NCBI GenBank assembly: GCA_002269645.1
Contig: NIVC01000283.1
Location: forward strand, 620,001-684,000
DNA length: 64,000 nucleotides
Reading direction: 5' to 3'
Source of the DNA: Macrostomum lignano
Taxonomy: Eukaryota
The position numbers were made by a program, and so were the translations under genes. Of the stretch, positions 1-44,348 are shown in pieces. The notes beneath the pieces were generated by a model. That model did not search any database, was not told the DNA's origin, and was given only the letters and a program-made list of their open reading frames with translations. Position 1 is the stretch's first letter. Each line of letters opens with the position of its first letter.

Positions 1-3
1 TGA

Positions 4-1525
4 TTGCATCGCAGAGAACAAGGAGAAGTTTGTGTTGATATTAAACAGGATAATTCGGGTAAAGGTGAAGGTTCGAGTGAAGGTAAGATAAGACTGAAGG
101 ATTCATATCAATTTCTAGCTGCCAGTCTAGACGAACTAAGCAAGAATCTGAAAGATGAACAATGTACATATACAAAGATGTTTGCAAGTAAAATTAACAA
201 CAGTGATGAATCATTTAAAATTTTAAGGAAAAAAGGCTTCTACCCCTATGAGAATATTACTGGGTATCACGTATTTAAAGAAGGTTTACCAACACAGGAG
301 AAGTTCTTTTTAAAGCTAACAGACTCTGGAATCTCTGCCAAAGACTATGAGCACGCGAAGCATGTCTATATTTACTTTAATTGCCAAAACTTCTTCCAGT
401 ATCACCTGCTTTACCTCTTCACAGACGTTTTTCTGCTGGCTGATGTGTTGGAACCTTCAGATACACCTGGTACACAGCATATGGCGTCGATCAAGTACAT
501 TGTGTCTCTCCCTACAACTAGCTGGGAATCTTTGCTTAAAATGAAATGGGATCAAGATCCAGATTGGTACATTGAACTTCTTACAGACATTGACATGTAC
601 AATTTTGTCGAATCGTCAAAACGAGAAGGAATCTCAATTTGCGTTAACAGGTATACAAAAGCAAACAATCCCTATATTGAATCTTCCACCTTCCAAATTC
701 CACCAGAGCTTCACGACTATTTCTCTGACTTTCCACCCTTCCCAGAGAACATCAAGTGCCCGAAAATAATCGAAACTCCTAATGGAACTTGTCACCTGTC
801 AGGAACAGAAAAAGAACATACAGAGAAACTAACACAGAATCTAAACAACAAAACACGTTACAAAATCCATTACAAACTGCTTCAGTATTTTATCTCACTT
901 GGTTGCAGGGTCACCAAAGTTCACAGGGCTCTTACATTTACAGAGGAAGCGTGGATGAAACCCTACATTGATAAGAACACCCAGTTTAGGACCAAAGCAA
1001 CCAACGTCTTTGACAAGAACCTCTTTAAGTTGGCCAACAACTCTGTCTATGGCAAGACTCTTGAGAATGAGCGGAAAATAACAAACCTGAAACTTGTTAC
1101 CTCATCAGAGCCTGCTGTTATTCAGGCAAATATGTCAAAGCCAACATTCAAAGAACTCCATATCTTTAATAGCTCATAATTCATTGGTTCATCATAATCA
1201 TCATAGCATCATAATTCATTGGGTTGAGAGCAAAGTCCTATTTTGTAAAATGTGAGTCGACAGACCCAATCAAAAAATCAAAGGGAATTCCGAAACGTGT
1301 GGTTAGGAAGGAAATTAATGAAGCTGAATACAGAGGCGCCTTGAATTGCAAAAAAAGACATCTAATGAGTTCTCAAAGCTACAATCTAAAAACCATATTA
1401 TTCACACAATTCAGCAGAAGAAGATTGGACTGTCAGGTGCAGATAACAAGAGATTCATTTTTGATGACAATATTAACAGTCTACCGTTCGGGCATTGGAG
1501 ATTAGGCTTAGGAGGTGGAGGTTAG
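4..1525 (+). pseudogene. polB: Protein-primed family B DNA polymerase (pPolB), pseudogene
   Basis: Motifs include DSYQFLAASLDELSKNL, KGFYPYE, TDVFLLADV, KLANNSVYGK (motif B) and FIGLRAKSY. After a frameshift at the A-run near 1351-1357 it continues KIGLSGADNKRFIFDDNINSLPFGHW to TAG at 1525. Motifs A and C are deleted. Confidence 0.92.
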
Positions 1526-1620
1526 GTTCGGGAACTGGAGGTTAGATTCGGGCACTGGAGATTAGGAGATTAGGAGATTGGGTTTAGGTTTAAGAGAAAG
1601 TTTAATAAACCTCATAAAAA

Positions 1621-2013
1621 ATGACGACAAATAACTTTGTTGAAGATTTGGCTAACGAACTGGAAATCCCAAACTTTAGAAGAATATTTATGAGGGACAC
1701 TGCCTGATTTTTCTCTAAGAAAAGAATCATGAACTTTGACACCACCGATAAACCAGGATCTCAGTGGGTTTGCTGGGTGATTGATTCCGATCGCAAGCAC
1801 AAGTGTTATTACTTTGATAGCTATGGGACGGCAGTACCAGAAGAGCTAAGAATTTATATGAAGGGGAAAAAGAATAAAAACATTTATCGCTCAGACTTTA
1901 TTCTCCAAGGTCTTAGCAGTGATATTTGCGGTGAGCTGTGCATGACTGTTTTGTATGCAATGACCAAAACACGAAAGACCTACAAGGAAATTATTCTTAC
2001 CTGTGCTTCATAG
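1621..2013 (+). pseudogene. Adenain-like cysteine protease of Polinton, frameshifted
   Basis: ATG at 1621 reads MTTNNFVEDLANELEIPNFRRIFMRDT, then frameshifts into NFDTTDKPGSQWV...YFDSYG...LQGLSSDICGELC. The catalytic His of GSHWV reads Gln. Confidence 0.85.
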
Positions 2014-2017
2014 GGGT

Positions 2018-2575
2018 TCATTGTGCATTTCTCGCCGTCCTTCTTGCCGAATTTCTTGCCGAATTTCTTTCCACATAATGTTGAAGAACTTTCTCGAGTT
2101 CATTTTTCAGCTGACTCATGTCATCAGTACCGACCATGTTCAAGTTCATTCGAATTGATTTTTCATAAAGATCCTGAATGGTTTTGAACTCATCCTCTGA
2201 AATGAACTTATCCTCGATTGCCCTTGAAATGTACCCTATGATTGAAGCCGCTGACCCAGTTAGAACAGACACAGATCCTAGAATCATATTGCTGTAGTCG
2301 AAAAATTTACAGCGGCTGTCATAGCGCTTAATTTTCTTTGTGTTGTGGAAAATATTTTTTTCAAGATCATCGCGCATTTTTTGAATCTCCACTAGTCGAA
2401 ACTGTTGAGAGTTACAGGTGATGACGGGGTAGAGTTTTTGCTGCTCATATTGGGGTGCATTCAGATTCGGTGCCAGGCTTTGTGTGTTCGAATTCGGTGC
2501 TATTGGGTTTGGTGCTGTTGGTATTTTAGGTTCAGCGTATTGAGACTGATCGTATAGAGAATTTTGTTGGGCCAT
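2018..2575 (-). CDS. Conserved Polinton/adintovirus hydrophobic (membrane-active, 'GasderminX'-like) protein, internally deleted
   Basis: LYP...FRLVEIQKMRDDLEK...KRY...FFDYSNMILGSVSVLTGSAASI joined directly to SRAIEDKFISEDEF. From memory of the family, ~50 aa normally lie between these blocks. Confidence 0.65.
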   Translation of the reverse strand: MAQQNSLYDQSQYAEPKIPTAPNPIAPNSNTQSLAPNLNAPQYEQQKLYPVITCNSQQFRLVEIQKMRDDLEKNIFHNTKKIKRYDSRCKFFDYSNMILGSVSVLTGSAASIIGYISRAIEDKFISEDEFKTIQDLYEKSIRMNLNMVGTDDMSQLKNELEKVLQHYVERNSARNSARRTARNAQ

Positions 2576-2608
2576 TTTTTCCCTAGAAAAAAATTACAAA
2601 TTACAAAA

Positions 2609-3371
2609 CTACCCGGTTGAAAGATCTGTTTTCTTTTTGATAATTTCATCTGCAGTAATGACTGGACGAGCAGTAGATTCTGCTTCATCAATAGCAATAT
2701 CGCGAAGATTGAGTGTTCTCTCTAGGCGATAAAGTCTCCTTAGTATTTTACCCCAAGAGCTATACATTCCGTTTAGATAGCTACTGTGTGATACATCGTT
2801 TTTCTCTAATGCTTCAAGTCTTAATTTAATTCTGTCATGCAACGCTGTTGACTGGTTCATGAACTCTTCTAAATTATTGACTTTAACTGTGTTTGTGAAA
2901 ACTCCTCCTTCAGGAATGCGCATCCGTCTATCAATGGAGTTTCTCAGAAGATTAACTGTCGATGTCAACCCGTTGATTTGCGAGACCGCCGAAGTTATTT
3001 CTGACCTTAGTTCATTAGTTGCGTGTGCAAACTGCGCATAAAGCTTATCACTTTCAAACTTCTGCCTAGCTACTTTAAGCCTGAGATCTTCTATGTTAAT
3101 TTGCAACTGGTGCATGGAGCGCTCTAATTGTTTCAGTCTGTTTTTATTCAGTTTGATCTCTGCGATCTCTTCGTCGCTGTTGATATTGAAGTGATCTTAA
3201 TTTAAGCCCGATGTTATTTTTTAGTCTAATGCGAACTTCAGAAGGTTTTCCTATCAGGAAAGTACAGCACATGCTTGTGCGGCAGTAAAGATCCGATTGC
3301 GTGAAGCGAACACCAATGAAATGCGTTATAGAAATCATATATATACTAGCGTTTAGTGAGAATGAAGCCAT
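2609..3371 (-). pseudogene. Polinton accessory coiled-coil protein, probably one gene split by a frameshift near 3190-3205
   Basis: The ORF 2609-3115 frame stays open upstream (DHFNINSDEEIAEIKLNKNRLKQLERSM) and overlaps ORF 3144-3371. Heptad-like Leu pattern. Confidence 0.45.
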
Positions 3372-3699
3372 TCTCCGCCTTCGTCCGCCCTTGTCCGCTC
3401 ACGTCCCCTTTGCGCCTCGCGCCACGCGCCTCGCCCTCTCGACGCACTCGGTTCTCCGCCTCTTTGCCTCCTAAACTGTTTCACTAGCTTGCCTTAACAA
3501 TCGGGCCTGAACTCTAATATCCCAATCTAACAGAGATAAATCCGGACAAACGTCAATTCGTGCAACTATATCGATAAGTAGCCTGTGGCTCCATTTTCAC
3601 TGAATTGCTTAACAAATTTGCGTAATTGCGTGATCAATATCCTATTAGGAATTGCTACTAACATTGATTAGTAATAAACATCTTGTTGAAGGTTAGAGA

Positions 3700-4482
3700 T
3701 CGAGAGAAACAAATCGAACCTCCGACTTATTTAATTCAACAGAAACATCGACGATTATAGACATCGTCGAAGAGAGGGGCACACCCCCGCAACACATTAT
3801 TCTAAAACATTTGAATATATCGCCTGTCAAGGATGGATATTTGAGCTGATGTAAGAGCGCTGTTGCACGCAGAACCTGTGGTATTCCCTGTGAGCACGCA
3901 GTGTGGATACCTACAATACTTTCTAGAAAACGTCTTTACTAAAAGAGGCCATTTTGAGACACCTGATCCGAGTAAGCTAGATAAAAAACTGTTCCCTATT
4001 AAACTAGCCTATGATCTCACTGTAATAAGTGGTCATGCAAGTTCACAAAGATGCGGAGGTTGAGTTTAAAGATGACACTTGGTATAGGGAATTGGGATTC
4101 GAGAAGAAAGTTTATAAGGAAGAATCCGCGGCGCGGACTGCCACTCAAACGTCGGGGCTGTTAGCATGGCCCGGAAAAATGTAAGCGGTTTGTTCTTAGC
4201 ACCCAATATTGCAGACATGTAAAGGGTTTGAATATTCTAATCAGAAGTAATCTCAGTCTTGATTGGGTATTTAAGGGGAAGCGAACAAATATTTTGTACA
4301 ACATCTCTAACTTTGTTGCTGGTGGACAGATGCTGGTAGAGAAACCAAATCCAATGAAAAGAGTTGTATTGAGTAATAAGGAGATTCACGAGATTGTACT
4401 ACAGTTTGAGACTGAAGATGGGGTAGGTGTTGATTTCAACGGTGAAGAGTTTTTATTGACGTTGATCATTGAGAGAATGTAA
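3700..4482 (+). pseudogene. Minor capsid protein (penton), multiply frameshifted
   Basis: C-terminus NILIRSNL...RTNILYNI...GQMLVEKP...IHEIVLQFETEDGVGVDFNGEEFLLTLIIERM matches Polinton pentons. Upstream fragments FPIKLAYDLTV and EFKDDTWYRELGFEKKVY lie in other frames. The start is approximate. Confidence 0.75.
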
Positions 4483-4486
4483 GAAA

Positions 4487-4726
4487 TCACAATTGCCTAA
4501 TGATTTCTGCAAAGTTATAGTAGCTGTCGTAATCTTTTACATAGGTTACTCCATACTTATGAAACCAGTGTCTTTGGAGAGCTAGATTAATATTAGGGAC
4601 ATTGATATGAACGTCGGGCCAATATTTTCTCATGTACTCGCTGCATTTAAGTTTGCATCGGTACTTGGAGTTGTACAATGGATTAGGCTGAGTATAATAA
4701 GAACCTGAAGAGACAACTGGAAACAT
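4487..4726 (-). CDS. Orphan 79-aa Tyr/Lys-rich Polinton accessory protein
   Basis: Intact ORF with ATG in an AAATG context, converging on the penton stop with a 4-bp gap, typical of compact viral genomes. No recognised homology. Confidence 0.45.
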   Translation of the reverse strand: MFPVVSSGSYYTQPNPLYNSKYRCKLKCSEYMRKYWPDVHINVPNINLALQRHWFHKYGVTYVKDYDSYYNFAEIIRQL

Positions 4727-5252
4727 TTATATTGAGAATTTAATTTTTTTCAATGGGTAAGGACCCTGCGCTGATGATTTAAAGTCTTTGGGATCTGGTT
4801 TCGCCGCTTCGCGTTGCGAATCGAATGTGGGGAGAAGAATGCAGATTATTTTCTGATTGTTTCGAAGATGTTATGGGTAGATGTAAGTGGATTATGTAGG
4901 ACACCTGTTATGCTCTGATTCTGTCGTGGAGGAAGGAGGATAGGTTAGGATTATGGATGACGTCCGCTGAGACCTCCGCTAGTCTAGCTATTAAGGCTTA
5001 ATTCAGCGGTTGTAACTGAAAATTGTTCTAAAAATAGCCCAGTCTTAGTCATTTAAAGGCGCTCCGCCTCCCCTCTCCAGCGAAGCTTGTAAGGCCAGAA
5101 GTGTTTAACACTTCCCTTCCCCCATTCCCCGCTCCCCAGGACGTTCGGTCCTACCCTTGAGTGTTGCCTCTTCCCCTTTCTCCCAGAGGAACTGGCGCCC
5201 GCCTCTTCTGCCCTTCCTAGATATTACTTATCACATTGACCATTTTTCAGAC

Positions 5253-5852
5253 ATGGATAGCGACGAGTGCATTGTTTGTTATGAAGACGCTGAACAGTAT
5301 GTCTACTGTCAGCATGGGCATAAGTTCTGCTATAACTGCTGCACAACGGATAGAATAGACAAATGCCCGCTATGCCGCGCACCACCTACCCTGTGCCAGG
5401 TATGCAATACAACACCGCAACAACGGATATGCGACAACGGGCACTGGGTCTGCCGAGATTGTGCCCTAAATATTCGGTGCCGCGACTATAAGCATTGCAT
5501 AACTTGTGCAGCGCCAATATCTAAGGAAATTTACGCCGGAACTACAACATTACCAAAGATCCAACTTACAAAGGAGATCATGGACAGTATGACGGCCAAG
5601 GAACTAGCAACAGCTATAAGAACCTGGCCAATACCATTCAACAAGAGAGACCATTTGGAATATCTTTTTGACTTGGTACGTCAATATGCGGCGCATCCAA
5701 TAAATACTACGAGTACAACTGAAGAGATCTACCTGGAATTCCTCAACGCCACCGAATCAACACAATTTACGCCGATACAGCACTTACTGTGGCCAATCGC
5801 GAGATTGACAACCAAAGTAAACGATATACTGAATGATATGCTTTCCTATTAA
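5253..5852 (+). CDS. Tandem RING-finger protein (putative E3 ubiquitin ligase), 199 aa
   Basis: RING1 is CIVC..CQHGHKFCYNC..CPLC and RING2 is CQVC..CDNGHWVCRDC..CITC. The likely start is ATG 5253, preceded by ttttcag. Confidence 0.85.
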   Translation: MDSDECIVCYEDAEQYVYCQHGHKFCYNCCTTDRIDKCPLCRAPPTLCQVCNTTPQQRICDNGHWVCRDCALNIRCRDYKHCITCAAPISKEIYAGTTTLPKIQLTKEIMDSMTAKELATAIRTWPIPFNKRDHLEYLFDLVRQYAAHPINTTSTTEEIYLEFLNATESTQFTPIQHLLWPIARLTTKVNDILNDMLSY

Positions 5853-5925
5853 CAATAACAATGCATCCTGCCAAGCAACACAATAACAATATGCTTCCTA
5901 AAAAGCAATCTTTCATCACAAAAAA

Positions 5926-5971
5926 CTACTAATACCTACCTATCTACCTATCTATCTACTATACTACTACT
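5926..5971. repeat. Right terminal tip of the Polinton TIR
   Basis: actactaatacctacctatctacctatctatctactatactactact; the reverse complement begins agtagtagtatagtag. Confidence 0.75.
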
Positions 5972-8619
5972 TGTTCAACATTTCTAATCCTTAAATACAT
6001 TTTCATGTTTATTAGAAGTGTGAAACCCCACTTCACCGCTTTAACTTTAAAATTCGGGACGAATTTTTCGTGAAAAGGGGAGATATTGTAGAGAGTTATT
6101 AAACCATACCGTAATGCTCTACTTAAAGTAATATTCTAATGAAGTCAATTTATTTCAAAATGAGTCATATCTATTTTAGGAATCACACGCAAACAGAATG
6201 ATTTAGAACCCTACATTGTTTGATCAAGGAACCGGATTTGAACAGCTGTATTTGTTTAACTCCATATATGGTAATGCTCAAACATGCATGACCGCTTAAT
6301 CAAACATTTTTGACCTAAGTAAATACCCAATCCCAAACCGGTTTTTCTCCAAAATTTTGCTATAAATATAAGTCAAAATTCGAGTCAAAAATTCAGACTC
6401 AGAGCGGTCTCTAAGAAGACTCCGAAGAAATAAGAAGACCAATCTCTGAGGGACCACACCTTTAATTAATTAATTAAATTTAGTTGATTAATTGAGTTTA
6501 CGAGAGCCACTTATTGTCGACACATTTGAGAAAGGCCTCCTTGTTTCCTAGCATACATTCCTAGAGGATTTATTGAATTGAATTGAGTTATCCGTTACGT
6601 TTCGGACGTAACGAAGAAGACGCCCTTTAAGAGGACCTATCACAGAAAATTAGAGAATTCAATTGTTCATTAGGGCGCACGTTCTACTGTTAATTCCGAG
6701 CTCGAGGACCGTGAAGAAGTTCTGATTCGCTCTCGTTTTTGGTCGACCCACAGATAAAAGTCAAGGACTCCCGGAGGTACTGAGTCACCTAAGCCAAACC
6801 AAGAAGCCTACAAGCCACTAAAGGATCCGCTGCAGTAAGTTATTTGAACTGGTAAATACCTAGGCACTTGTTCCCCAGTGTCTGGAAGTGGGAGTTTTGA
6901 GTGACTGATCACCACTCTTAAACTCTTCAATATAGTTAATTATACTGATTTTTTAGTTTAATATTTATTTGTGCATATTTAAAAAAACCTTTTATTAAGG
7001 GAGATCTACTGCTGCCACTGCCAGTGTATCTGCAACAAATAGTCTCCAGCATTTAATGGTTTGTGTGTGCGTAACATAATGCGTTGCGCCATTACCGACA
7101 TCCAGGTTGCTGCTGGTGGCTGCCATTTTGAGACCCTGGCCGCTCTTGTTGCAATGTGTGGTGCAGATATCGGCAGCATCTGACATGGAGCGTAAGTCTA
7201 ACATATTGTATATGTTTTCTCTTTTTATTATTATGAACCTGCTTTAAGTAAGTACCTAACATTTTACAGAGACTTCGGTCGCGAGCTATGGGACCTCTTC
7301 GAAGTCGTTCTCGATCGCAACACCGCCGATTTTCTACGCCGTCCGTTGCCATCCACTGGTCGTCCGCCCAGTTTCTGTATTTCCTGTGACAAAAGCACCC
7401 CTGGTGTGTAAAGGATAATATTAATTATTAAATATACTTAACTTAATTAACAGGTAACAATTTATTCACTATTATTCGCAGGTCGAATCACAAACCAGGC
7501 GGTTCTGCTGCTCAGCAGGTGTGAAACTGGTGACGCCATCGCCATCCCTGCTGGTGCTCCATCAGTTTACGAGAGCGACATGGATGCCACAGGCGGCGCG
7601 TTGGTCAAGCGAATTCTGGACGCTCTGGTTCATTTCAAGCCCCCACTTGAGCATGTAGTTGGGATTGCTGCAGATGGGCAGTACCAGAGTGATCCGTTCA
7701 AAGCTGCAATCCGCCAAGCTCTGCAGGCTGCCGTTCCTAACCTTGAGGCCTATGTTCCGATTAACTGGGACGGCCCACATCTCGTCAGCCTAGCTTTTAA
7801 CGACGTACGGGATGGTGCAGAGGGGGCATCGCGCTGCGCAGATTTATTAAGCGTGCAACATTTTTGCCCATCTGTATGGACATGGTCGTGGATTTGCTGC
7901 TTTGCAGGTAAGTTTCAGTCTCTCACTCAAATTCTTCCACAGTTTAGTTTTACTCCAGACGGACGGAGGATATTCATCTCTTTACCTTCCCCTACTCATC
8001 CACAGAAAGCATCGGAAGATCAATCGAGCAGAACGCGAGTGATCCCTACCAACGCCTTGCAGCGTTTCTTTAGTTCGGCCTTGAAGCAGTGGGACGCCAT
8101 TCTGGCCTCCTACGGCAAGCTGCACTCAGCGTTTGGAGCCGAAAATCCTCGGTGCGGAGTAAATGAGACGTCACAGTATGAGCTATTCGGGAGCGACTTC
8201 GTCATGGAGCTCCTGTGCCTGCTCGACTTGTTTGAGCCATTGCGGGCCTTCATGGCGCTTCTCCAGGACAGCAGTGCGCCGCATTGGAAGGTGGTCACTA
8301 CCTGGAGTGACTGTTGCCGAGTTTCTTGAGCTTCGAGGCAAGGGTTTTGAAAGGTTTGTTAGGAAGCCTTTTTTCTTATGCTAATGTATTCGGTTTAATA
8401 TGACTTCGAGACTTCGTGACTTCACTTCATCTGCTGAGTACAATAAATACTCTGTACTTCAAATCAACATTTCACAGTTCGCACTACCCGCGGTATCACA
8501 AAGTCGCTAAGAACATCGTACCGGACAGTGAGTTTGATGGTGTCACCTTGCTAGAAGGCTGGCTTGTCGAAGTTGCTCCAGACGATATGGCTCCGGCTCC
8601 CCCTGCTGGTCAGTGGCAT

Positions 8620-11600
8620 CAGTGGCGGATCCAGGGGGGGGGGGGGGCGGGGGGGGCGGCCGCCCCCCCACTTTCGCCGTGGCTGGACTTGCATGGAAGG
8701 GAGATATTTTAATTTTGGGCTCCTCAACCCACAAAGTCCAAGTTCTTCATTATATTTCCATTGCTTCTATGGTCTGTCTGCTTTTCCTTGGAATGGAATT
8801 GCATCCCATGGAACATTGTCGGTTCGGTTTTATTTATTTCTAGCCAAACCATTGGCAAGAGAGAAGCTAAGTTAAGTTATGATAGTAAGAGTAGGGTGAG
8901 AGCACAGACCAAGAAAAGAAATATAACTAGACTGCGCATCCCGCATTTCTTGCTTGGGCTTGTTTTTGACCAAATGACAGTGGAAAAAAAGAGACCCCGA
9001 CAAGCTGAGTTGGCTGAGGGTAAGAAGAAAGGCCCGGGCACAATTATCGATCGTGGGGGAGTGGGCGCTGGGGTGCCACTTTTCCTACTAGGAAAAAGGC
9101 ACAACTTTTTTTACCCTCATGCGCAGTCTAGTTATATTTCTTGGTCTGTGGGTGAGAGAGACACTGAGACTCTGAGAGAGACTTGGGGTGGGGGAATGGA
9201 ATGAAAAGGGGTTGAAAGGCTTTTCCTCCCCCATTTTGGGGTTCAGACTTGAGAGCAATGTACATTGCGTCAATGCGTCTTGCGAAAACCAGCGAAAGCT
9301 TAACAGCCTGCTACAAAGGACAAATAGTTTGAGCCAGTCCCGGCTATCTGTCTACACTCAACACCAATTGAACTTGAAGTCCGTAAAATCCATTTGGCAA
9401 GTCTTAACATATGATGCACAAATTCACAATCACGAAGAATGAAGCGAGCATCTTCTCCATTAGAGCGTGACGCAAAGCGACAAAAATTGCTAACGCACTT
9501 TTTTGTTACACCACCTGGTCCTGCCACTGCTGCTGCAAAGTTATCTGCTGCTTCTACTGCTGCTGAGATCCGATTCATTTCTTCTTCTGCTGCTCCTGCT
9601 GCTGCTGCCACTGCTGAGAGACCTAGTTCTTCTGCTGTTGCTGTTTCGGAACAATTTGCTACAACTTGTACTCGTAATTCAGACGAAGCTGAAGCCGGCA
9701 CCTCTGAATGCGATGCCGAGTTCAATGGAGATACCAGAGAAGCCAATGAAGTACAAGTGAGCAAGTTGTCTGACTTTGACATAGGTCTATTCGATCCTGC
9801 TGCTGACAGTGCCACTAAGATAGCCTTCCTGACGCAAACGTGGGAGCCCCCAGTTCCTACCCAATGCCATTTGAAGAGCGAAAGACAAAGGGCAAAATAG
9901 AAAAGAGATTCCTGAGGCACAGTCATCTAGCCGACAAACCCTGGTTAGCATACTCACATGTAAAGAGTGGCTTGTTCTGCAAAGTTTGTGTGCTATTTGG
10001 TACTCAGCAAGGGCAACAAGGTCACCAATTGGGAAGACTAGTTCATGAGCCGTTGCAAAAGTACGCAAGACTCTTGGGAGCAGATGGCTATCTCTGCGCT
10101 CACGAGCATACCAACTACCACAAAGACAATGTACTGAGAGCACAGGAGTTCAAGCGAATGGTGCCAGAACAGCACATTGACAGTCGATTGGCAACACAGA
10201 GGCAGGAGCAGATTGCAAAGAACAGGCATATCCTCAGCTCCATTGTGCGTGCCATCCTAGTCTGTGGAAGGAGTGGCTCTGCTCTCAGGGGACACCGAGA
10301 CGATCATGGTGTGCTAGAGACTGCCGACCGACCTGGCCAGAATGATGGTCTCTTTCGAGAGATCCTGCGAGCAATGGTGGACACAGGAGACAAGAGGCTA
10401 GAGGAGCATCTGCGCTCTGGACCCGGCAACGCTAAGTACACCAGCAAGACGATTCAGAATGAGCTGATCGAGTGCATTGGAGAAGTGATTCTGGACCGCC
10501 TGAAGGAGCGGATAAACAATGCACAGTTTGTGTCCATCCTGGCTGATGAAACAACAGACCAGGCCACAAAGGAGCAGCTGACAGTATGTGTTCGCTATGT
10601 GTTTGATGGAGCAATTTGTGAAGACTTTCTGGGATTCACCATTGCAGAGGACATGACTGGAGCGGGACTTGCGAGGAACATTCTGTCCCAGTTCGTCACT
10701 CTCGGCATTCTCTTGGAAGGGCGGCTGGTGGGATTGGGATTTGATTGTGCCAGTGCGATGAGCGGCAAGTTCAAGGGAGCTCAAGCAATAATCAGAGAAG
10801 AGCACCCCATCGCCATCTACATTCATTGTGCTGCGCATCAACTCAATCTGGTCATCAGCAAGAGCAGCGAAGTCCCTGGCATCAGAAATACGTGGGGAAA
10901 CATCCAAGAGCTGGCGAAGTTCTTCAACAGTTCTGCTCAGAGAGTGAAGTGTCTGGAGGACATAGTGAAGTCACAGAACCATCAGGCCAATACCCGTCGA
11001 GTGAAGAACCTATGCGACACTCGCTGGATTGAAAGACACGATGCGGTTCTAACAACAAGACATCTACTGATACCAATCGTGCAAGCTCTTGAAGAAGTTC
11101 GCGAGCATTCCAACCCAGAAGCATCCAGAAATGCAAAAGCTCTGCTTAATTCGATGGACGCAGAGTTTCTGGTATCAATCGTGGTTCTGGATGTAACTTT
11201 GACTCTCACCAAGGGATTGGCAGAAGCTCTCCAGAAGTGTGCAATAGATTTGCTAAGCGCCAGGTTTCTAATTGCGGATGTGCAAGAGCAACTGCAGAAG
11301 TGGCGGGAAGAGTCTGCAGAGAAGTTCAGTGAGCTCTGGGAGAAGATTCTAGAGACTGCAGAGGCAATTGAAATCGACTTGACTCCTCCTAGGCGAGTTG
11401 CGCGTCAAACGAATCGTGCCAATCTTCCTACTACTGATCCCAAGGACTACTGGCGTTTGACAATCTTTGTTCCCTTCTTGGATGGACTACTGGTCAACCT
11501 GCAAGACCGATTTGCACGCCTTTCTGACGTTGCTTCTGGACTCAGTGCCCTTATCCCAGCAACAGCCAAGAAGCATGCAAATCCATTCATTCAGCTCAAG

Positions 11601-12440
11601 CCATCAATGCAGCACTTTGCTTCAGTTCTGCCAAGCCAGGAGCAAGAGGAGGTTGAAGCAGAATTTAACCAGTGGATGCGACTCTGGCAAAGGGAGGATC
11701 CACAGAAATGGCCCACAACTTTGACTAAGACAATCTTGGAGTGCGACCATAGCCTGTTTCCCAACATCAGCACTCTCTTGAACATTTACGCAACGCTGCC
11801 TGTCTCCACTGCCACTGGAGAAAGATCCTTCTCTTCGCTGAAGTTCCTAAAGAATTACTTGCGCAGCACCATGGGAGAAGAGCGGCTGAATGGACTGGCA
11901 TTGGCCTTCATCCACAAGGACATGATTTGTAATACTGCAAGTACAATATATGCAACTGTGGAGAAGTTTCTGTCAAAGGATGTCAATCGCCGTGCCTGCT
12001 TCAATTAAGTGATTCCAATTCGTTAATTCCAATTTCCATTCTTCTACGCTCTATTTGCTACTAACAATTGCTTATTCGCGTCTCACTGCAACACGTACAT
12101 TCTATTCAAATTTCAAATTAAAATATTATAGTGTTGGTCTTCTCACATTGTCATTGACTTTCTTTTAAATGAAGCCTTGATAACTCACTAAATATAATTG
12201 TCAATATTGGCCAAAATGGGTTAGTTCTTCCCGAGACCCGAGCCAACTTCTACTACTACCCTCATTTGTCAGAGTCATTTGCACCACTCTAGGCATTAAA
12301 ATGTATGCAAAAATTGATATATCCTCTCAAGATCTTGTATTGAGCATAGATGAAAGATAGATGGATTGGGATTACTTAGTTTCTAGTTTCTGTACTCGCA
12401 TATCCGCCACCCCACTTAAGAAATCCTGGATCCGCCACTG
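8620..12440 (+). mobile_element. Full-length hAT DNA transposon, 3821 bp
   Basis: Perfect 16-bp TIRs CAGTGGCGGATCCAGG (8620-8635 and 12425-12440) and a perfect 8-bp TSD AGTGGCAT (8612-8619 and 12441-12448). Confidence 0.97.
9439..12008 (+). CDS. hAT transposase (ZMYM1/PRKRIR-like: TTF zinc finger, DUF4371, hATC dimerisation) with one frameshift near 9847-9851
   Basis: WLAYS..GLFCKVC (TTF zinc finger), SILADETTD, GFDCASAM, IHCAAHQLNL, CDTRWIERH, LPVSTATGERSFSSLK. ORF 9439-9900 and ORF 9840-12008 join as WEPPSSYPMPF if one C is added. Confidence 0.93.
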
Positions 12441-14416: not shown

Positions 14417-15779
14417 GCTGTCAATCATTCCACTGACTTTATCTGTGAATTACCTAAATTCATTAGTTGTATTCGAGAATACAACTCTTAATATAATGTA
14501 AGCATTATAAAACGTTTAGCTGCATCTGCAATCGCCACTTACCTAATGATTTGCTCTAGTAGCTGTACTAGGGACCTGTGTATATGAGACAAAGTCTGTT
14601 TCGTTGCTGCCGTGCGCAAGAAGCTTTTAAAATGTATATAACTTCTTTTCTAGACGACCAGAGCTTCCCTCTCTCGTCTCCTTCGCCCTCCCTCAGCCTC
14701 GGTTGGGTGAGTGAAAAGTTGAAAGCCCCCCTCCCACCCAAGTGTACACTGGGCTAAGTACACTCCCGCCCTCCGCGCTCTTCTGTGTCTCTTAAAAAAT
14801 CGATAGACAAAGCCCAGACGCCCGCCTTTCCAGTCACCCGACGACAACCGGCTAGCCGGGCCAAAAGCTTACAAAATCATCGGGCTAACCGGCAGGAAAG
14901 CGCGCTCTCGAGCTCTCGCTTTTCCCGGCTAGACGGGCCCAAAGCGCGCTCCCATACAATCAAATGGGAGTGTATCAATTGAAAGCTTTCACGGGTGTTT
15001 AATAACAATTTGCAGTAGAAAAATCGACGTTTGTTAATATTAATTCGCTTGCATGTAATTTGAAAACAAAATTTACAGGAATGAGCTAAGGTTCCTGTGT
15101 TCAACGTTCAACAAAAGCTTTTAAGGCATATTTGTTGTGCTACTGTGCATTGCTGTGCTGGCCTATGCACTAGACTGAACAAGTGAAGGCTTCGTGTACA
15201 AGATAAATGAAAGGAGCTTTTCTTAAATTTCTTGTGCATTATTATGTGATTGCTTGAGTAATTTTTTTCTATAGTTTTAAAGCCTGTCACGTGTCAGTTA
15301 ATTAATAATACAGGCATTTGAAATATAAATGTAGGTCTAATATTATGAGAAGTAACTTATAAGCTGCTTTTATTCAATTATAAAAAGGCTTCAATTCAAT
15401 TAAATTCTATTATTTAGCTATAGCCCTGTGTGTACGAAAGCCTATTGAGCACTAAGCCTAGGCCTAGCTTATTGACTTGGCCTTAATGAATAGATTTAGC
15501 TAACTTACTAGCAATCTAGTGCGGCCCCCCTTCGGGGCGCCCAATAAGAAAGGAGCAAAAATAGTTCATGGAAAACAATAAAAAAACACATTTTCTTAAA
15601 CATTAATTCCTTCTTCACATTTTAAAAATCACCTTATTCGTGTAAAATTGTCACAGACTAAGATGTTTGCAAAATTAAAAAATCACTTTTTCTCTAAAAT
15701 TAACAAACAGTCAACAAAATATCGTTTCACTAAATAGAAAATATTCCCAAGACAGCAAGCAACCCCCTCCAAAAGTGAA

Positions 15780-16170
15780 CAATCGCAGATAGCAAGCATC
15801 CTCTAATGCTCATAGCAAGAATCACCACAGATAGCAAGCATCTGCAGATTAGCAAGCACCCCCCAGATATTATAGAAGCATCCACCCAGATAGCAAGCAT
15901 CCACTCAGATAGCAAGCAATCATGCAGATATCAAGCACCCCCAGATATTATAGAAGCATCCTGCAGATAGCAAGCACCCCCCAGATATTATAGAAGCATC
16001 CACCCAGATAGCAAGCATCCTGCAGATAGCAAGAATCCCTAAATAGCAAGCATCCTGCAGATAGCAAGAATCCCTGAATAGCAAGCATCCCTGGATAGAA
16101 AGAATCCCATGCATGTAGGCAGTACCCCCTCTCCCAAATAGCAAGTATCCCCCTCGAGAGCAAGCATCCA
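15780..16170. repeat. Degenerate ~15-18-bp tandem repeat (cagatagcaagcatcc)
   Basis: Visible periodicity inside H1. Confidence 0.85.
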
Positions 16171-16289
16171 CGAGACAGCAAGTAGCTAGTGCAAATGTTA
16201 CTTCCGCTAATGCAATAATCGCTTTCTCAGGTTGTGCAACAATCCACGTCTCAGCGAGCGCAATAATCTCTTTTTTAGACAGCGCAGTA

Positions 16290-17850
16290 ATCAGCTTCTC
16301 AGCTAGTGCAATAATCCTTGGTTTATTAATAGCAATAATCCTTGATTAATCAAGTGCAATAATCCTTGGTTTATCAAGTGCAATAATCCTTGGTTTATCA
16401 AGTGCAGTAATCTTTGGCTTATCAAGTGCAATAATCCTTGGTTTATCAAGTGCAATAATCCTTTGTTTATCAAGTGCAATAATCCTTGGTTTATCAAGTG
16501 CAATAATCCTTGGTTTATTAAGTGCAATAATCCTTGGTTTATCAAGTGCAATAATCCTTGGTTTATCTAGCGCAGTAATCCTTGGCTTATCAGGTGCAAT
16601 AATCCTTGGTTTATCAAGTGCAATATTTGTTTATCAAGTGCAATAATCCTTGGTTTATCAAGTGAAATAATCCTTGGTTTATCAAGTGCAATAATCCTTG
16701 GTTTATCAAGTGCAATAATCCTTGGCTTATCAACTGCAATAATCCTTGGTTTATCAAGCGCAGTAATCTTTGGCCTATCAAGTGCAATAATCCTTGGTTT
16801 ATCAAGTGCAGTAATCCTTGGCCTATCAAGTGCAATAATCCTTGGTTTATCAAGTGCAATAATCCTTGGTTTATCAAGTGCAATAATCCTTGGTTTATCA
16901 AGTGCAATAATCCTTGGCTTATCAACTGCAATAATCCTTGGTTTATCAAGTGCAATAGTCCTTGGTTTATCAAGCGCAGTAATCCTTGGCCTATCAAGTG
17001 CAATAATCCTTGGCTTATCAAGTGCAATAATCCTTGGTTTATCAAGTGCAATAATCCTTGGTTTATCAAGTGCAGTAATCCTTGGCCTATCAAGTGCAAT
17101 AATCCTTGGTTTGCCAAGAGCAATAATCCTTAGTTTATCGAGTGCAGTAATCCTTAGTTTTCCAAGTGCAGTAATCCTTGGTTTATTAAGAGCAATAATC
17201 CTTGGCTTATCGAGTGCAGTAATCCTTGGTTTGCCAAGAGCAATAATCCTTGGTTTATCAAGTGCAATAATCCTTGGTTTATCAAGTGCAGTAATCCTTG
17301 GCCTATCAAGTGCAATATTCCTTGGTTTATCAAGTGCAATAGTCCTTGGTTTATCGAGTGCAGTAATCCTTGGTTTTCCAAGTGCAATAATCCTTGGCTT
17401 CTTGAGTGCAGTAATCCTTGGTTTGCCAAGAGCAATAGTCCTTGGTTTATCGAGTGCAGTAATCCTTGGTTTTCCAAGTGCAGTAATCCTTGGTTTATTA
17501 ATAGCAATAATCCTTGGCTTCTTGAGTGCAGTAATCCTTGGTTTGCCAAGAGCAATAGTCCTTGGTTTATCGAGTGCATTAATCCTTGGTTTTCCAAGTG
17601 CAATAATTCTTGGCTTCTTGAGTGCAGTAATCCTTGGTTTGCCAAGAGCAATAGTCCTTGGTTTATCGAGTGCAGTAATCCTTGGTTTTCCAAGTGCCGT
17701 AATCCTTGGTTTATTAATAGCAATAATCCTTGATTAATCAAGTGCAGTAATCTTTGGTTTGCCAAGAGCAATAGTCCTTGGTTTATCGAGTGCAGTAGTC
17801 CTTGGTTTATTAATAGCAATAATCCTTGGCTTATCGAGTGCAGTAATCTA
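16290..17850. repeat. 24-bp minisatellite (atccttggtttatcaagtgcaata)n, about 65 units
   Basis: 8-aa periodicity (LLHLINQG) in the ORF track; direct inspection. Confidence 0.97.
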
Positions 17851-17920
17851 AGTGTTTTTATTTAGTCCTTTAATAAAACCTTTTAATAAAAAATTTTACA
17901 CTACTACTTTTAAACTACTT

Positions 17921-17974
17921 AGATTCGAACCTAGGTCGCTGCATTAGCAGTCTGGTCTGTTCAGCTCTAGGCTA
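17921..17974 (-). other. tRNA-derived (SINE head-like) fragment
   Basis: The minus strand reads tagcctagagctg...gactgctaatgc...ggttcgaatc, with an A-box-like start, a Ser(GCT)-like anticodon loop and a B box. There is no acceptor stem. Confidence 0.4.
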
Positions 17975-18533
17975 GCTCTCATCGAAGTTATCAGTGATGT
18001 TGTACCACTTATATAATTCAACACTCACACCAAGTCAGGTAGAGTAAAAAGTCTCACGAAGCAGTTATGACATAATCAATTTCTTAGGCAAGTCAGTACC
18101 AGTGTCTATGAAAGTTTACAATATGGTTACGTAATATAAATTCAGTACTGCGCTATGCTTTCACACTCAAAGCTGTGACGCAATTCAATTGAGTGTCAAA
18201 TTCAGCCAGTACACAGACGATAAATAAAGTGTATTGTGATGCAATCTATTTCAGAATCAGAATTCAACCAGTCAGTTTTTCTGCTAGCATTCTTACGATG
18301 CATTTCAAGTCGAAAGAGCTGCTTGACCTTTGCAAAAAAGCATGTTTTTCGAATATTTAATCCCTTTAGCATCAAGCAATTTCTTAGCCACGATGCATGT
18401 ACTGTCACGGGAAAATTTCTGATCGAACAGTGCAAGTTCGAAGAAAATCGGTTGAGCCGTTTTTGCTAAAATCGATCACACACACACACATACACACACA
18501 CACATACCGACAGACCATTTTTAGTATATTGGA

Positions 18534-21071
18534 CTAGATAAGAGCCTTAAAATTTTGTTTTTTTTATCTATCTACTTTAATCTTTATGTATACCAATAGG
18601 CCTTTGACTAAATAACAAACTATAAAACTAAGCCTACAATATTTTATATCAAATACCTGATGTTTGACTTATTTTCCTTTCCTTAGTTCCCCTCTCCCCT
18701 AACCTTGGATTTCCTCCCTCTAACCCTAGCTTCTCTCCTTACTGACCCCTGGCTTCTCTCCTCCCTGACCCTGGCTTCACTCCCCTGACCCTGGCTTCCC
18801 TTCCCTGACCCTGGCTTTTCTCCTCCCCTGACCCCTGGCTTCTCTCCTCCCTGACCCTGGCTTCCTTCCCCTGACCCTGGCTTCCCTCCCCTGACCCTGG
18901 CTTCCTTCCCCTGACCCTGGCTTCCTTCCCCTGACCCTGGCTTCTCTCTACTTGGCCCCGGCTTCCCTCCCCTGACCCTGGCTTCTCCCCCCTGACCCTG
19001 GCTTCTCCCCCCTGACCCTAGCTTCCCTCCCCTGACCCTGGCTTCCCTCCCCTGACCCTGGCTTCTCTCCCCCTGACCCCTGGCTTCCCTCCTTCCTAAT
19101 CCTTGGCTTCCCTCTCCTGACCTTGGCTTCCCTCCCCCTGACCCTGGCTTCTCTCCTTACTGACCCCTGGCTTCTCTCCTCCCTGACCCTGGCTTCACTC
19201 CCCTGACCCTGGCTTCCCTTCCCTGACCCTGGCTTTTCTCCTCCCCTGACCCTGGCTTCTCTCCTCTCTGACCCTGGCTTCCTTCCCCTGACCCTGGCTT
19301 CACAACCCTCGACCCTGGCTTCTCTCCACTTGGCCCTGGCTTCTCTCCCCCTGACCCTGGCTTCCCTCCCCTGACCCTGGCTTCCCTCTCCTGACCCTGG
19401 CTTCCCTCCCTTGACCCTGGCTTCCCTCCCCTGACCCTGGCTTCCTTCCCCTGACCCTGACTTCTCTCCCCTTGACCCTAGCTTCTCTCCCCCTGACCCT
19501 AGCTTCCCTCCCCGACCCTGGCTTCCCTCCCCTGACCCTGGCTTCTCTCCCCTGACCCTGGCTTCTCTCCCCCTGACCCTGGCTTCCCTCCTCGACCTTG
19601 GCTTCCCTCCCCTGACCCTGGCTTCCCTCCCCTGACCCTGGGTTCTCCCCCCTGACCCTGGCTTCCCTCCCCTGACCCTGGCTTCTCCCCCCTGACCCTG
19701 GCTTCCCTCCCGTGACCCTGGCTTCCCTCCCCTGACCCTGGCTTCTCTCCTCCCCTGACCCTGGCTTCCCTCCCTTGACCCTGGCTTCCCTCCCCTGACC
19801 CTGGCTTCCCTCCCCTGACCCTGGCTTCCCTCCCCTGACCCTGGCTTCTCTCCCCTGACCCTGGCTTCCTTCCCCTGACCCTGGCTTCTCCCCCCTGACC
19901 CTGGCTTCCCTCCCCTGACCCTGGCTTCTCCCCCCTGACCCTGGCTTCCCTCCTCGACCCTGGCTTCCCTCCCCTGACCCTGGCTTCCCTCCCCTGACCC
20001 TGGCTTCTCCCCCCTGACCCTGGCTTCCCTCCCCTGACCCTGGCTTCTCCCCCCTGACCCTGGCTTCCCTCCCGTGACCCTGGCTTCCCTCCCCTGACCC
20101 TGGCTTCTCTCCTCCCCTGACCCTGGCTTCCCTCCCTTGACCCTAGCTTCTCTCCCCTGACCCTGGCTTCTCTCCCCTGACCCTGGCTTCTCTCTGCCTG
20201 GCCTGGCTTTTCTCCTTACTAACCCCTGGCTTCTCTCCCCCTGACCCTGGCTTCCCTGTCCTGACCCTGGCTTCCCTCCCTTGACCCTGGCTTCTTTCTT
20301 CCCCTGACCCTAGCTTCCCTGCCCTGACCCTGGCTTCCTTCCCCAGACCTTGGCTTCCCTCCCCTGACCCTAGCTTCTCTCCCCCGACCCTGGCTTCTCT
20401 CCCCTGACCCTGGCTTCTCTCCCCCGACCCTGGCTTCCCTATCCTGACCCTGGCTTCCTTCCCCTGACTCTGGCTTCTCTCCCCCTGACCCTGGCTTTTC
20501 TCCTTACTGACCCTGGCTTCCTTCCCCTGACCCTGGCTTCTCTCCCCCTGACCCTGGCTTCCCTCCCCTGACCCTGGCTTCTCTCCCTCCTGACCCTTGT
20601 TTCCCTCCCTCCTGACCCCCTGGCTTCCCTCCCTCCTGACCCATGGCTCCCTCTCTCCTGAACCCTGGATTCCCTCACTCCTGACCCTTGTTTCCCTCTC
20701 TCCTGACCCATGGCTTCCTCTACTGACCCATGGCTTCCCTCACTCTTGACCAGTGGCTCTGCCTCCTTGCTCTTTCTCTCCTGCTCTGCCTCCTGGTTTT
20801 CTGCCTTCTGCTCTGTCCGCACGGCTTTGCTTCCTGCTCTGCCCTCTCTGCTATCTGCTGTACCCTGCTTCTCCGCCCTCTGCTAAAACTAGTCTCGTAT
20901 TAGTACCAAGCAGCACAGCTTATTGAAAGCACATTCTTCCTTCAGAAATAGCTACCGGTGAAGCCCAGCTGCTGTCCTATTGGCACCTTTGCTTTGGTCT
21001 CCGCCTCGAAGAACGCTGCTGCGGCCGGGACTGCCGCTGGTTCTGCCTAAGCAGCCGCCTCGAACAACGCT
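18534..21071 (-). mobile_element. Repetitive module H2 (Helitron-like CTAG 3' end) containing a 20-bp array; also present at ~28395-29801 and ~30500-31783
   Basis: All three copies end at ...aaggctcttatCTAG|T. No clear 3' hairpin or 5' TC end was found. Confidence 0.5.
18715..20740. repeat. 20-bp minisatellite (ctgaccctggcttccctccc)n
   Basis: Exact 20-bp period visible around 19801-19920. Confidence 0.97.
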
Positions 21072-21424
21072 ACAGTCGGTGCAAAGCGTACCATAACCTT
21101 CAGCAATGCGGTGATCGTATCAAAGTTAGCTCAGAATGGAACGGTCGTTGAAAGGATTTTGTCTTGAGCTGTCAGCAAATGGAAATTCGTATCATTGACA
21201 GTTCCTGTTAGCTTTATTTACAGTCAATTTTTTAACTTTGTTTATCCGTACCTTTTACCCTTGCTCTACTTTTATCCATAACTTGTTAGTTTCTTGCTCA
21301 TGTACTCTATGCATGCACATATACACGCATTAGTACCGATCACCGTTAGTGAGGTTTCACAAGTCACCAATAGCCATAACACAAAAGCCATGCATTGACA
21401 AGCCATATCTAATTTTGGCAGAGG

Positions 21425-21560
21425 CGAGGAGAGCGGTAAGGTGGCGGGAGCTGAGAGCGGGAAGGTGGCGGGAGCTGAGAGCGGGAAGGTGGCGGGAGCT
21501 GAGAGCGGGAAGGTGGCGGGAGCTGAGAGCGGGAAGGTGGTGGAAGTTGAGAGCTGAGAG
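21425..21560. repeat. 24-bp tandem repeat (gagagcgggaaggtggcgggagct)
   Basis: About 5 units; WRELRAGR periodicity. Confidence 0.9.
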
Positions 21561-21839
21561 GTTTGACCAAAGGACTGTCGTCGCGCTCTAACAGTGTGGC
21601 TGAACTGACCACTTGTACCTTCTGCATATTTTATATTTTGGTCAAAAAATCATAAGTTGACTTGTAGGTGTTCACGTCGTGGTACGTTCGTTTTTGCGGC
21701 TGTTGCTAAGTCTTGTGGAATTGTTAAATCGAATTGTCCGTGTTCTTTTCTCGTTTTTTATTATAGTGTGCCATTTAGTGTACCTGAATTGTGCCATTTT
21801 TTTTTAAAAAGAACGACAAATAGAAAATACTAGCAGCTG

Positions 21840-22400
21840 ACAATGGAATGTGCGATGAGCGAGAAAAAAATAAAGGATATGTTGTACGAAAACAGAAATA
21901 ATTGTTCTTTTTTGTTTGCAATAAAAAAGCCAATAAAAGGAAGAGAAGTTGAAGTGGATGAGTCCAATTTTTTCATCGCAAATATTACCAGGGAGCTTAC
22001 CGCGAGGGCCACTGGGTGCTTGGGATGGTCGAGCAAGGTACACGCAAATGCATGATGGTACAAGTACCCAACCGGTCTGCTGAGTCAGATTATTCAGCAG
22101 ATGTGTTGCCTGGGACACGCATTTTAACTGACGGCTGGCATGTATATAGTGCGCTTCCCCAGGTGTTTGTCAATCACCGTCTGCATTTCGTTGATCCAAA
22201 CGATCCAACTGTGCCCACAAACAACATCGAAGGCACCTGGGCACTCGTGAAGGCGAAGTTTTGCAGCCAGCATGGCGCTAGTGACGACCTTTTTTGAGTC
22301 TCATCTTAGCGAGTTCCTCTGGCGCCAACTCTAGCCAGAGAAGTGCTTTGGGAACTTCCTGTACTAGGGGAATATAGCTGTATAACGCTATTTTTAAGAC
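21840..22400 (+). pseudogene. Merlin (IS1016/ISXO2-like) transposase fragment
   Basis: GREVEVDESNF ... VQVPNRS..VLPGTRILTDGWHVYSAL..VNHRLHFVDPNDPTVPTNNIEGTWALVK..LF(E)SHLSEFLWRQ, with frameshifts. Confidence 0.85.
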
Positions 22401-23398
22401 CTTAAGTATGTTCTAATAAACTTAATTTAGTTCGTTTGTTAAAAAAACTAGGACATGCTAAAAAGCCTTATTGATGAAAGCGCCACATACAATTACGTAT
22501 ATCGAGTACGTGGATCGATACGTGGATCGAGTTAATGTATTTCGGGCTGTTAGAAAAGGGATAGAATTTTGAGATTATTTTCGATAGTAACCTGCGTTAC
22601 TCGTACAGTACTTCATCACGCATAGCGCTATGCAACTCATTAAAAGATGAGGTTAGGTGTTAGTGTGTTCTGTGTAGGTGCCAATGTTGGGGCGTAGCGA
22701 GGAGGGGTCATTAGCACTTGAGAGGGCACCAATAAAGTACGGAAGCGATTCTGAATGGCTTCAATGGAATTTCTTATATTAATCGTACATGTAGAAGTAC
22801 ACGGAAGACAGAACGGACGTCCGCATGCGACTCCTGCCGTTCCCTGAATTTAGTGCGTGCACCTCTGGACTGTTTAGAAATTTGGTTAAGAATCTTCTTT
22901 AAAATAAGAATCACAGCTTCATGCACATGTGCTACGAGTAATTGCTTTCCAGGACGTGAACTCCGACTATACATGTAAGTGCAAAATGTATTGACATACA
23001 ATAGAATATACCTGAACCACAGTTTCTACCTACAATAAGGCGCATACATGTACATTGCCATGTTTATCATGCCATATTGGTAACATTATTTATGACTTGT
23101 GGAACTCACAAACTGTGATCTACACATTTATCATATACGTACATCCCATACATCATATTACAGTTACATGAGCTAGAAATTACATGTAACAGGATATAGC
23201 CAAGTGACTTGACCATACGTACGTACGAAGTACAAGCGATTACACATTCATTCTGTTGAAATTTGCTTCTTTTAATTAAGTATATTTTATCAGTTTGAAC
23301 AAAAAGAAATACACAATATGAAAAATTGAGCAGTTTGGGGGGCACTTAAAGTATTAGCGTATTTGCGATATGAACTAACAACCATAGATATATCGGTA

Positions 23399-25367: not shown

Positions 25368-25708
25368 TACGATACTGTATTGGATATTTATTGAACTCTC
25401 TAGAAAGGGATACGCACAGCTATTTGCATTAACAATATTAATCAATATTATGTATCTGACAATTACTATATAAAGTACTAAAAGTACGAGCTATATACTA
25501 TAAACAACAGATTCCAGTGAAGACTCCCTAGAACTCGCTCTCTATAGTATGCATCCTGCTGTAATTTAGCTGAACACTCTCGGCTGTTGATAGTGTATGC
25601 TTGATTAGTGCATGGTCGAGCTCCCCTGAACAAAACTAGCGGCTGATCCGGGTTTTTTATAGGTACACGCCAAACGGCATAGCCAGAACCAGATAACAGA
25701 TAGCATAA

Positions 25709-26120
25709 CCAGAACAACAACAACAGAATACGCAGTTAGCGTCACACGGCGCGCCTCAAGGCCAACAACAACAAACAACAAAAGTACACTGGATAGTCTC
25801 TAGTGTCACAGGGCGCGTCTCAAGGCCAGAGTGCGAACATAGGCCGCTCCGGCGGCAGAGTCCGGGGCGCCGGCGTCAGCCAGCAGGCAGTCGACGAAAC
25901 GCCGAGTGCGCGCCTGTCCCCGCCGGTAGGGCCGGTGCCTGCAGCATCAGCAGCAGGACCTCCTGCACCGGCTATGGCCAGTACGATTCAGCACGGATGA
26001 TATGACCTGCCAGCTGGAGTCGCCGACAGCGCAACAGGTCGCTTGGACGCACCAGTAGGCCGGCGCGGTGATACACGCCAGTCCACTCGTTGATATCTTA
26101 CCATAGGTCGCCTTCGCCTC
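25709..26120 (-). mobile_element. 5'-truncated RTE-clade non-LTR retrotransposon (3' end)
   Basis: Minus frames read DLLRCRRLQLAGHIIRAESYWP*PVQEVLLL and RRGQARTRRFVDCLLAD, followed by (TTG)n tail-like tracts at ~25711-25785. Confidence 0.7.
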
Positions 26121-26299
26121 GCCTTATTTCCTCACGTACCATGCAGGCACCTGCGATAAGTTCACCAGGAGGGTTCATCAGGATTGCTTGGTACCGGAGG
26201 TCAAGGACAGGTCACGGCCTTCAATGTCACACATCACACGCTCACGTGATCGCGTGTCTCAGAGAATTATAAAAAGGAACCCGTTTTTGAACGCGTGTT

Positions 26300-40970: not shown

Positions 40971-44348
<3,378 letters not shown>

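Follow-up and report, generated by a model that had tools for sequence, protein, structure and literature searches.

The left-hand part of a 64,000-nucleotide stretch of the Macrostomum lignano genome (contig NIVC01000283.1, positions 620,001 to 684,000 of the forward strand; the whole stretch is hereafter called the window) raises the question of what kind of element is preserved there and whether its right terminus is in view. An earlier note on this DNA had described an endogenous Polinton/adintovirus-like virus made up of a protein-primed polymerase (pPolB), a protease, a hydrophobic protein, penton relics, two orphan open reading frames (ORFs) and a RING gene, and ending in an ACT run at position 5971. 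All of these parts are present in the sequence, and homology, fold and the gene neighbourhoods of relatives all support an assignment to the Polintons/adintoviruses. The locus is probably a dead, deletion-ridden copy of a Polinton/Maverick of the adintovirus type, from a family that likely numbers about 100 close copies; its right end likely represents the genuine tip of a minority form with the RING gene, likely inserted just before the 3' long terminal repeat (LTR) of a retrotransposon. The core of the element comprises the following features (depths refer to the public runs described below):

1..1495, plus strand: relic of a protein-primed PolB (Pfam, homologues, motif comparison)
1618..2013, plus strand: relic of an adenovirus-type maturation protease (homology to Polinton-locus proteases)
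2018..2578, minus strand: conserved Polinton helical-hairpin membrane protein (profile match), about 55 residues of its hydrophobic middle gone
2609..3196, minus strand: orphan ORF of 195 amino acids with a coiled-coil N-terminal half (core depth in sister contigs)
3197..3874, no strand: variable intergenic region (3361-3840 about 10-fold below core in two of four runs, less so in the others)
3875..4482, plus strand: frameshifted relic of the penton, a minor capsid protein (homology to the related protein P0122; fold of the P0122 model)
4483..5040, no strand: likely inner portion of the terminal inverted repeat of the family (depth of bins 4321-5040)
4487..4726, minus strand: orphan ORF of 79 codons without homologue, within the likely inner terminal repeat

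Related loci (108: 28 viral and 80 from metagenomes) were fetched with the PolB alignment, and six of them were scanned against Pfam. L001 and L003 encode an integrase (rve), an A32 ATPase and a double-jelly-roll capsid protein, L002 the ATPase and the capsid protein, and L007, L016 and L025 the integrase and the ATPase. The PolB, protease, membrane protein and penton of the window all match proteins of loci that hold these genes (all three in L001 and L003, the last two in L002). Ten natural queries for integrase, packaging ATPase and major capsid protein gave no match in the 64-kb window at an E-value of 0.5; the element runs off the window start. L016 also carries two NUMOD4-HNH-AP2 genes on the same strand (209-730 and 17182-17700), one of them near its GTAGTAG start.

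The polymerase is recognizable despite its damage. ORF 4-1176 matches Pfam DNA_pol_B_2 at 27 bits (cut-off 25.8) and 122 longer proteins, the best of them at E 2e-66 with about 35% identity; there are named matches from Elysia, Biomphalaria, Amphiura, Aquatica and Macrosteles and also from Porites; by manual count, 36 of the 120 PolB homologues listed contain the endonuclease VII domain PF02945. C-terminal pieces of PolB follow at 1215-1495 in two other frames. Comparison with three full-length relatives revealed that the segments bearing motif A and motif C are gone while motif B is kept. Neither motif A nor motif C patterns were found in the six frames of positions 1-6000; the motif A pattern is present in 102 of 120 homologues. 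With both motifs missing, this copy is therefore unable to encode a working polymerase. At the gap that removes motif C, positions 1174-1221 hold a short insert built from repeated copies of the adjacent flank, resembling the templated inserts of polymerase-theta repair.

To place the polymerase, a tree was built from 51 rows (50 of 162 eligible homologues plus the window) and 334 trimmed columns, with no outgroup. The window PolB is at most 46% identical to any other row over the trimmed columns and stands alone at the end of a long branch of 1.05 (the median of the terminal branches is 0.32), a length that is inflated by the decay of this copy. Its pairing with P0067 (support 0.89) was taken as long-branch attraction. 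The match of the window PolB to PF03175 amounts to 27 bits; two of four full-length relatives gave no PF03175 match at E 0.01 and the other two scored 61-69 bits. By the wording of section 3.1 of Starrett et al. (2021; PMC8502044), rather than by comparison of sequences, a weak pfam03175 match would point to the Beta class; an initial 'Alpha' label was dropped in light of the definition in that section. The suggestion that gene set and order mark an undescribed lineage holds only in the weak sense that there is no close relative: PolB is followed directly by the protease in three of the 18 related loci that hold both genes as well. The family is one without a close known relative, as is common for invertebrate Polintons.

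The remaining core genes are also relics or orphans. The protease is 34% identical to those of L002 and L003 (E 3.5e-17 to the latter) and has suffered an internal stop, a short gap and loss of the catalytic histidine. ORF 2018-2578 matches ORFs of five of the 108 related loci, and a profile of three Polinton-locus ORFs finds eight of the 108 and recovers the window ORF (E 1e-11) as two segments separated by about 55 positions of the profile. With its own sequence as query, no viral contig was found and Atlas matches reached at most 0.83. Modelling of an intact relative (L032) gave a helical hairpin whose top fold matches are iridovirus proteins (E 1e-6), together with generic helical bundles (Z up to 11). 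The protein may belong to the PW/GasderminX family, in which case GasderminX would be a further likeness to Beta-type adintoviruses; gasdermin was not among the 50 matches listed in either fold search of the relative, which is no proof of a different fold. The penton piece at 4165-4479 matches 15 proteins among 1.84 billion, one at 90% and one (P0122) at 63% identity. P0122 aligns over 3875-4479 in three frames, its first 90 residues unmatched, and the fold predicted for it resembles the mavirus penton 6g41 (E 3.9e-11) as well as the penton bases of adenoviruses; a search of viral contigs with P0122 gave no match. For the orphan at 2609-3196 no homologue was found (none of 203 candidates scored; Atlas matches of at most 0.83 are leads only), and none of nine window ORFs was present by exact sequence in the protein collection.

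In gene content the element resembles the vertebrate Polintons/Mavericks as described by Barreat and Katzourakis (2021; PMC8097293), which likewise have pPolB, protease and a minor capsid protein, finish on the right in (ACT)n, bear accessory ORFs close to their ends and decay by stops and frameshifts, and whose PW gene may correspond to the membrane protein here; in that account 96% of vertebrate loci are eroded and some hosts hold more than 100 copies. It departs from their description in gene order: there PolB and protease lie in opposite modules, whereas here they are adjacent on one strand, followed by the membrane protein and an orphan on the opposite strand and then by the penton back on the first, and the integrase, ATPase, major capsid, PZ and PM genes of vertebrate Polintons are not in view. 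Likenesses to Beta-type adintoviruses, as presented in PMC8502044, are the animal host, adenain, the penton and the reported IAP-like accessory genes, and probably a PolB with a weak pfam03175 match; unlike them, the related loci L001-L003 carry a PLA2 gene, which the same text ties to Alpha modules. The N-terminal OTU domain of a Beta-type PolB would precede the window start. Polinton PolBs that carry endonuclease VII, from molluscs, echinoderms, corals and insects, belong to the same polymerase class (26-44% identity) but do not share the long lone branch of the window PolB, and an endonuclease region would here precede the window start.

The copy number and shape of the family were examined in public assemblies of the same organism. 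Contigs matching the stretch were present in 20 runs from seven studies, and four runs (X1, X3, X7 and X9, one per study) were compared with positions 1-7200 at 85% likeness. All compared contigs share the same differences from the window at many core positions, and contig loose ends coincide with window gaps at 685, 697, 1213, 1726 and 2256; the sisters therefore resemble each other and hold DNA at these gaps, and the window copy is privately damaged. Median depth of the core bins was 112,000 in X7, 13,000 in X3, 2,100 in X9 and 108 in X1, and core depth from single contigs was 92-103 times the low-depth median in X3, 62-68 times in X9 and 3-5 times in X1 (X7 gave no single-contig value). Bins 4321-5040 lie at about twice core depth (1.78x in X3, 1.82x in X7, 1.96x in X9, and 3.2x in X1), as expected of an inner terminal repeat. 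Loose ends at 3186 in X3 and X7 resemble sequence near 3820; some sisters may lack the stretch between 3186 and about 3820, and a shorter derivative may exist. The depth ratio of core (1-3120) to LTR (6241-6960) varied by run (X3 2.9, X7 3.0, X9 1.2, X1 0.29), which may reflect contig artefact, run type or real differences in Polinton dose.

Beyond the core, the right end and its flank comprise the following features:

5041..5218, no strand: G+C-rich low-copy stretch (contig branch at about 5218)
5253..5852, plus strand: open ORF of 199 amino acids with two RING-like domains and a C-terminal half of no known family, a minority end cassette (Pfam)
5922..5971, plus strand: short-period repeat run ending in (ACT)3, probable right tip of a minority-form Polinton (3-4-base repeats, published end motif)
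5972..5977, plus strand: TGTTCA, candidate right target-site copy (sequence)
6050..6086, plus strand: likely 3' end of the internal part of an LTR retrotransposon, with polypurine tract (sequence; X1 loose ends at 6050)
6087..~6932, plus strand: likely LTR of a separate high-copy repeat, with TG start and eroded end (depth; loose ends at 6087, 6898 and 6915)

A run of 3-4-base repeats closes with ACTACTACT at 5971, and TGTTCA follows directly. Section 7 of PMC8097293 gives (AGT)2//(ACT)2 as the commonest Polinton end motif, puts the terminal repeats at 46-1,447 bp and places accessory regions close to the ends; the right-hand half of that motif is found here, with (ACT)3 ending at 5971. Three of the 108 related loci start with (A)GTAGTAG at the contig end. 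Having the right motif, place and orientation, the ACT run is, with good though incomplete confidence, a true Polinton tip. The junction itself is no assembly error and the arrangement is real, since a contig of X1 (record 7) spans 5590-6122 with one difference; another X1 contig (record 5) covers 4921-5248 with none. A 325-base X7 contig of depth 1072 (record 20), which most likely covers 5792-6116, lies close to the RING depth of 1311 in that run, so most RING copies seem to share the flank beyond the tip. A 20-mer of the tip matched three viral contigs mid-contig, without protein similarity to the element, and was judged a low-complexity chance match. A literature search found no account joining Maverick terminal inverted repeats with AGTAGT, which does not imply absence from print.

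A true tip need not be the usual tip of the family. The step at about 5040 takes bins 5041-6000 below core depth by 42-fold in X3, 74-fold in X7, 21-fold in X9 and 4-fold in X1. The full model of the earlier note, in which the family regularly ends here on the right, the lineage as a rule carries RING and a mirror image of 5926-5971 forms the left end, preceded by TGTTCA, fits the motif, its orientation and its position, and some tip-bearing contigs may be hidden by the contig filter and by repeat masking. A terminal repeat should nevertheless stand at twice core depth, yet RING and tip lie 21- to 74-fold under it in X3, X7 and X9 and the doubling stops at about 5040, which makes this model very improbable. 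No inverted copy of the tip or end was found within the window, and across 5971 depth in X7 scarcely drops (1311 to 1072), leaving scant room for an inverted left-end copy with a different flank; this goes part of the way towards the outcome that the earlier note had named as refuting its model, the lack of an inverted copy of 5926-5971. What stands of the claim that the right terminus is in view is therefore the tip, probably a true Polinton end, and not the notion of a general end for the family. The AGT-type tip with RING likely occurs in a small share of family copies, making this right end untypical.

The RING ORF matches Pfam zf-C3HC4_3 at 32 bits and contains six CxxC pairs. None of 30 candidate homologues (lengths 109-349) scored, and a search of PDB returned a single weak match, to the BIRC7 RING (E 0.016). 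Judged from its domain, the protein would most likely be a ubiquitin ligase acting on host proteins. Several of its features allow another origin, in which the RING gene and the ACT run are native to the LTR retrotransposon, as an additional gene ahead of the 3' LTR with a microsatellite arising by chance behind it, and the Polinton relic was fused to them by a deletion at about 5218 with loss of its true tip. The ORF runs in the sense of the LTR, an acceptor-like TTTTCAG lies just upstream of its ATG, and its G+C content is 0.45, against 0.37-0.41 in the core genes. Contigs also branch near 5218 from both sides (X7 record 18 and X9 record 24 depart after 5217; X1 record 6 and X9 record 26 begin at 5219), and a single depth is common to RING, tip and flank. 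Private deletions are numerous in the window copy, however, so that a branch at 5218 is expected without foreign origin, and the run ends exactly in the published Polinton motif, oriented as a right tip. Moreover, no gag or pol remnant was found among the ORFs of positions 1-8000, most X1 contigs of the LTR family diverge upstream of 6050, and RING-type (IAP) accessory genes are reported in adintoviruses in section 3.2 of PMC8502044. A literature search found no account of an extra RING-finger ORF in Gypsy LTR retrotransposons, which again does not imply absence from print. On balance we consider a retrotransposon origin rather unlikely.

The likely LTR lies shortly after the tip. A purine run stops at 6086 and TG begins at 6087, where X1 has a loose end, leaving a spacer of 116 bp between tip and LTR. 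Depth climbs again 14- to 25-fold in bins 6241-6960, the steps falling at 6050-6087 and 6930-6960, and returns to baseline at 6961-7200; purine run, loose ends and depth plateau point to a likely LTR of about 850 bp behind a polypurine tract. The motif at 6050-6086 may be of the Gypsy type, a likeness that a literature search neither supported nor refuted. A Ty3/Gypsy 3' end likewise has a purine run directly before the TG start of a high-copy repeat of such length with sharp edges; unlike such an element, this one has no gag or pol in view. No second LTR copy was found within the window; together with gag and pol it would be located past the left end of the Polinton, and the pattern of the LTR-side motif had no match in viral contigs.

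That RING, tip and spacer stand at one depth, with the DNA past the LTR near baseline, also suits a third explanation: after landing in the LTR retrotransposon, a real Polinton end became part of it along with its two-RING gene and replication tip, and the composite has since been reverse-transcribed to about 5-8 places, the donor being an abundant, young Polinton family that swaps end cassettes within its terminal repeat. Consistent with this, the DNA upstream of 5219 seems to be different in most RING copies. In low-copy units, RING depth is 7.0-8.1 in X3, 5.7-6.9 in X7, 4.6-5.0 in X9 and 1.1-1.6 in X1. Duplicated haplotypes with private deletions would yield the same depths, however, no second locus was seen, and X1 shows just 1-2 units; we therefore regard capture by the retrotransposon as quite improbable.

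Several observations weigh against a minority-form Polinton tip inserted before the LTR. Depth at 5157 (X7 135, X9 55, X3 100) is below that of RING (X7 1311, X9 79-86, X3 200-230), so that the majority of RING copies are not seen joined to this Polinton through the same DNA. In three of four runs, depth falls 8- to 11-fold from the RING segment to the DNA past the LTR, which fits a hemizygous flank but also retrotransposition. It is on these two grounds, the unjoined RING copies and the near-baseline DNA past the LTR, that a RING gene native to the retrotransposon and a Polinton end copied by it both stay in contention. By itself the 9-mer tip is weakly above chance, with two occurrences in 64 kb (both strands) against 0.50 expected, a number reached in 7 of 100 shuffles; among other 1.5-kb stretches of the window it was present in 14 of 553 on the plus strand and none of 553 on the minus strand, and the 6-bp motif alone, which occurs 37 times, is not specific. 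The contig-level readings were drawn from the contig pieces (31 of 11,839) and loose ends (24 of 1,260) listed, and the filter conceals some contigs. Positions 5930-5961 were masked as repeat in the comparison, so that some tip-bearing contigs may be unseen, and the crossing of the tip by X7 record 20 is deduced from its length and bin depth. Summed contig depth is not copy number, and only large steps were interpreted; the low-copy baseline is the median of two to six chosen low-depth records per run; and the core of X1, a run whose type was guessed as RNA, reaches just 3-5 times that baseline.

Taking the preferred reading, a decayed minority-form Polinton ahead of the LTR, the history of the locus may be pictured as follows. 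Active members of the family would, by analogy with other Polintons, replicate by means of a protein-primed polymerase, beginning at AGT-repeat ends; a retrovirus-like integrase would insert them, leaving a 6-bp duplication, and their DNA could be packaged in a capsid matured by the protease. The family would be abundant, its members agreeing in the core and inner terminal repeat but varying in their outer ends: most sisters would depart from this sequence at about 5040 and end otherwise, and the RING cassette would occupy a variable accessory region inside or beside the terminal repeat. One member with the RING cassette would have inserted 116 bp ahead of the LTR and then decayed. The 5-8 depth units of RING, tip and flank would represent this one old insertion, passively multiplied by duplicated or homologous haplotypes, rather than separate jumps.

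The remainder of the window holds other mobile elements and host genes. Directly after the LTR, 7000-8329 (plus strand) contains transposase-like coding pieces with apparent introns that matched no Pfam or NCBIfam family, and 9819-12008 (plus strand) is an open 729-codon hAT transposase ORF with DUF4371 and a hAT dimerisation domain. A 17.6-kb element at 14835-32456 has 677-bp inverted ends (99.7% alike, starting CACCCGACG) and a 7-bp direct repeat, TTCCAGT, on either side; its interior contains minisatellites and internal duplications, and part of the right end is present a further time at 29798-30184. The element has the look of a recent non-autonomous DNA transposon of the foldback type. 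On the minus strand lie host genes: a rhodopsin-type receptor-like ORF (37103-37882), a Vestigial/Tondu-like ORF below the Pfam cut-off (41341-42588) and two RRM-bearing exons (58571-60457).

These findings extend the list of animal hosts by one whose Polinton family is large, apparently young and without a close relative in the searched collections, and this family would be useful for asking whether Polintons still replicate. They also carry a caution, that an AGT-type tip in one copy need not be the end of its family. If the LTR element has copied the RING end, cargo would have passed between a DNA virus-like element and a retrotransposon in a rare event that can be dated. The variable ends of the family illustrate the gain and loss of accessory genes such as RING ligases.

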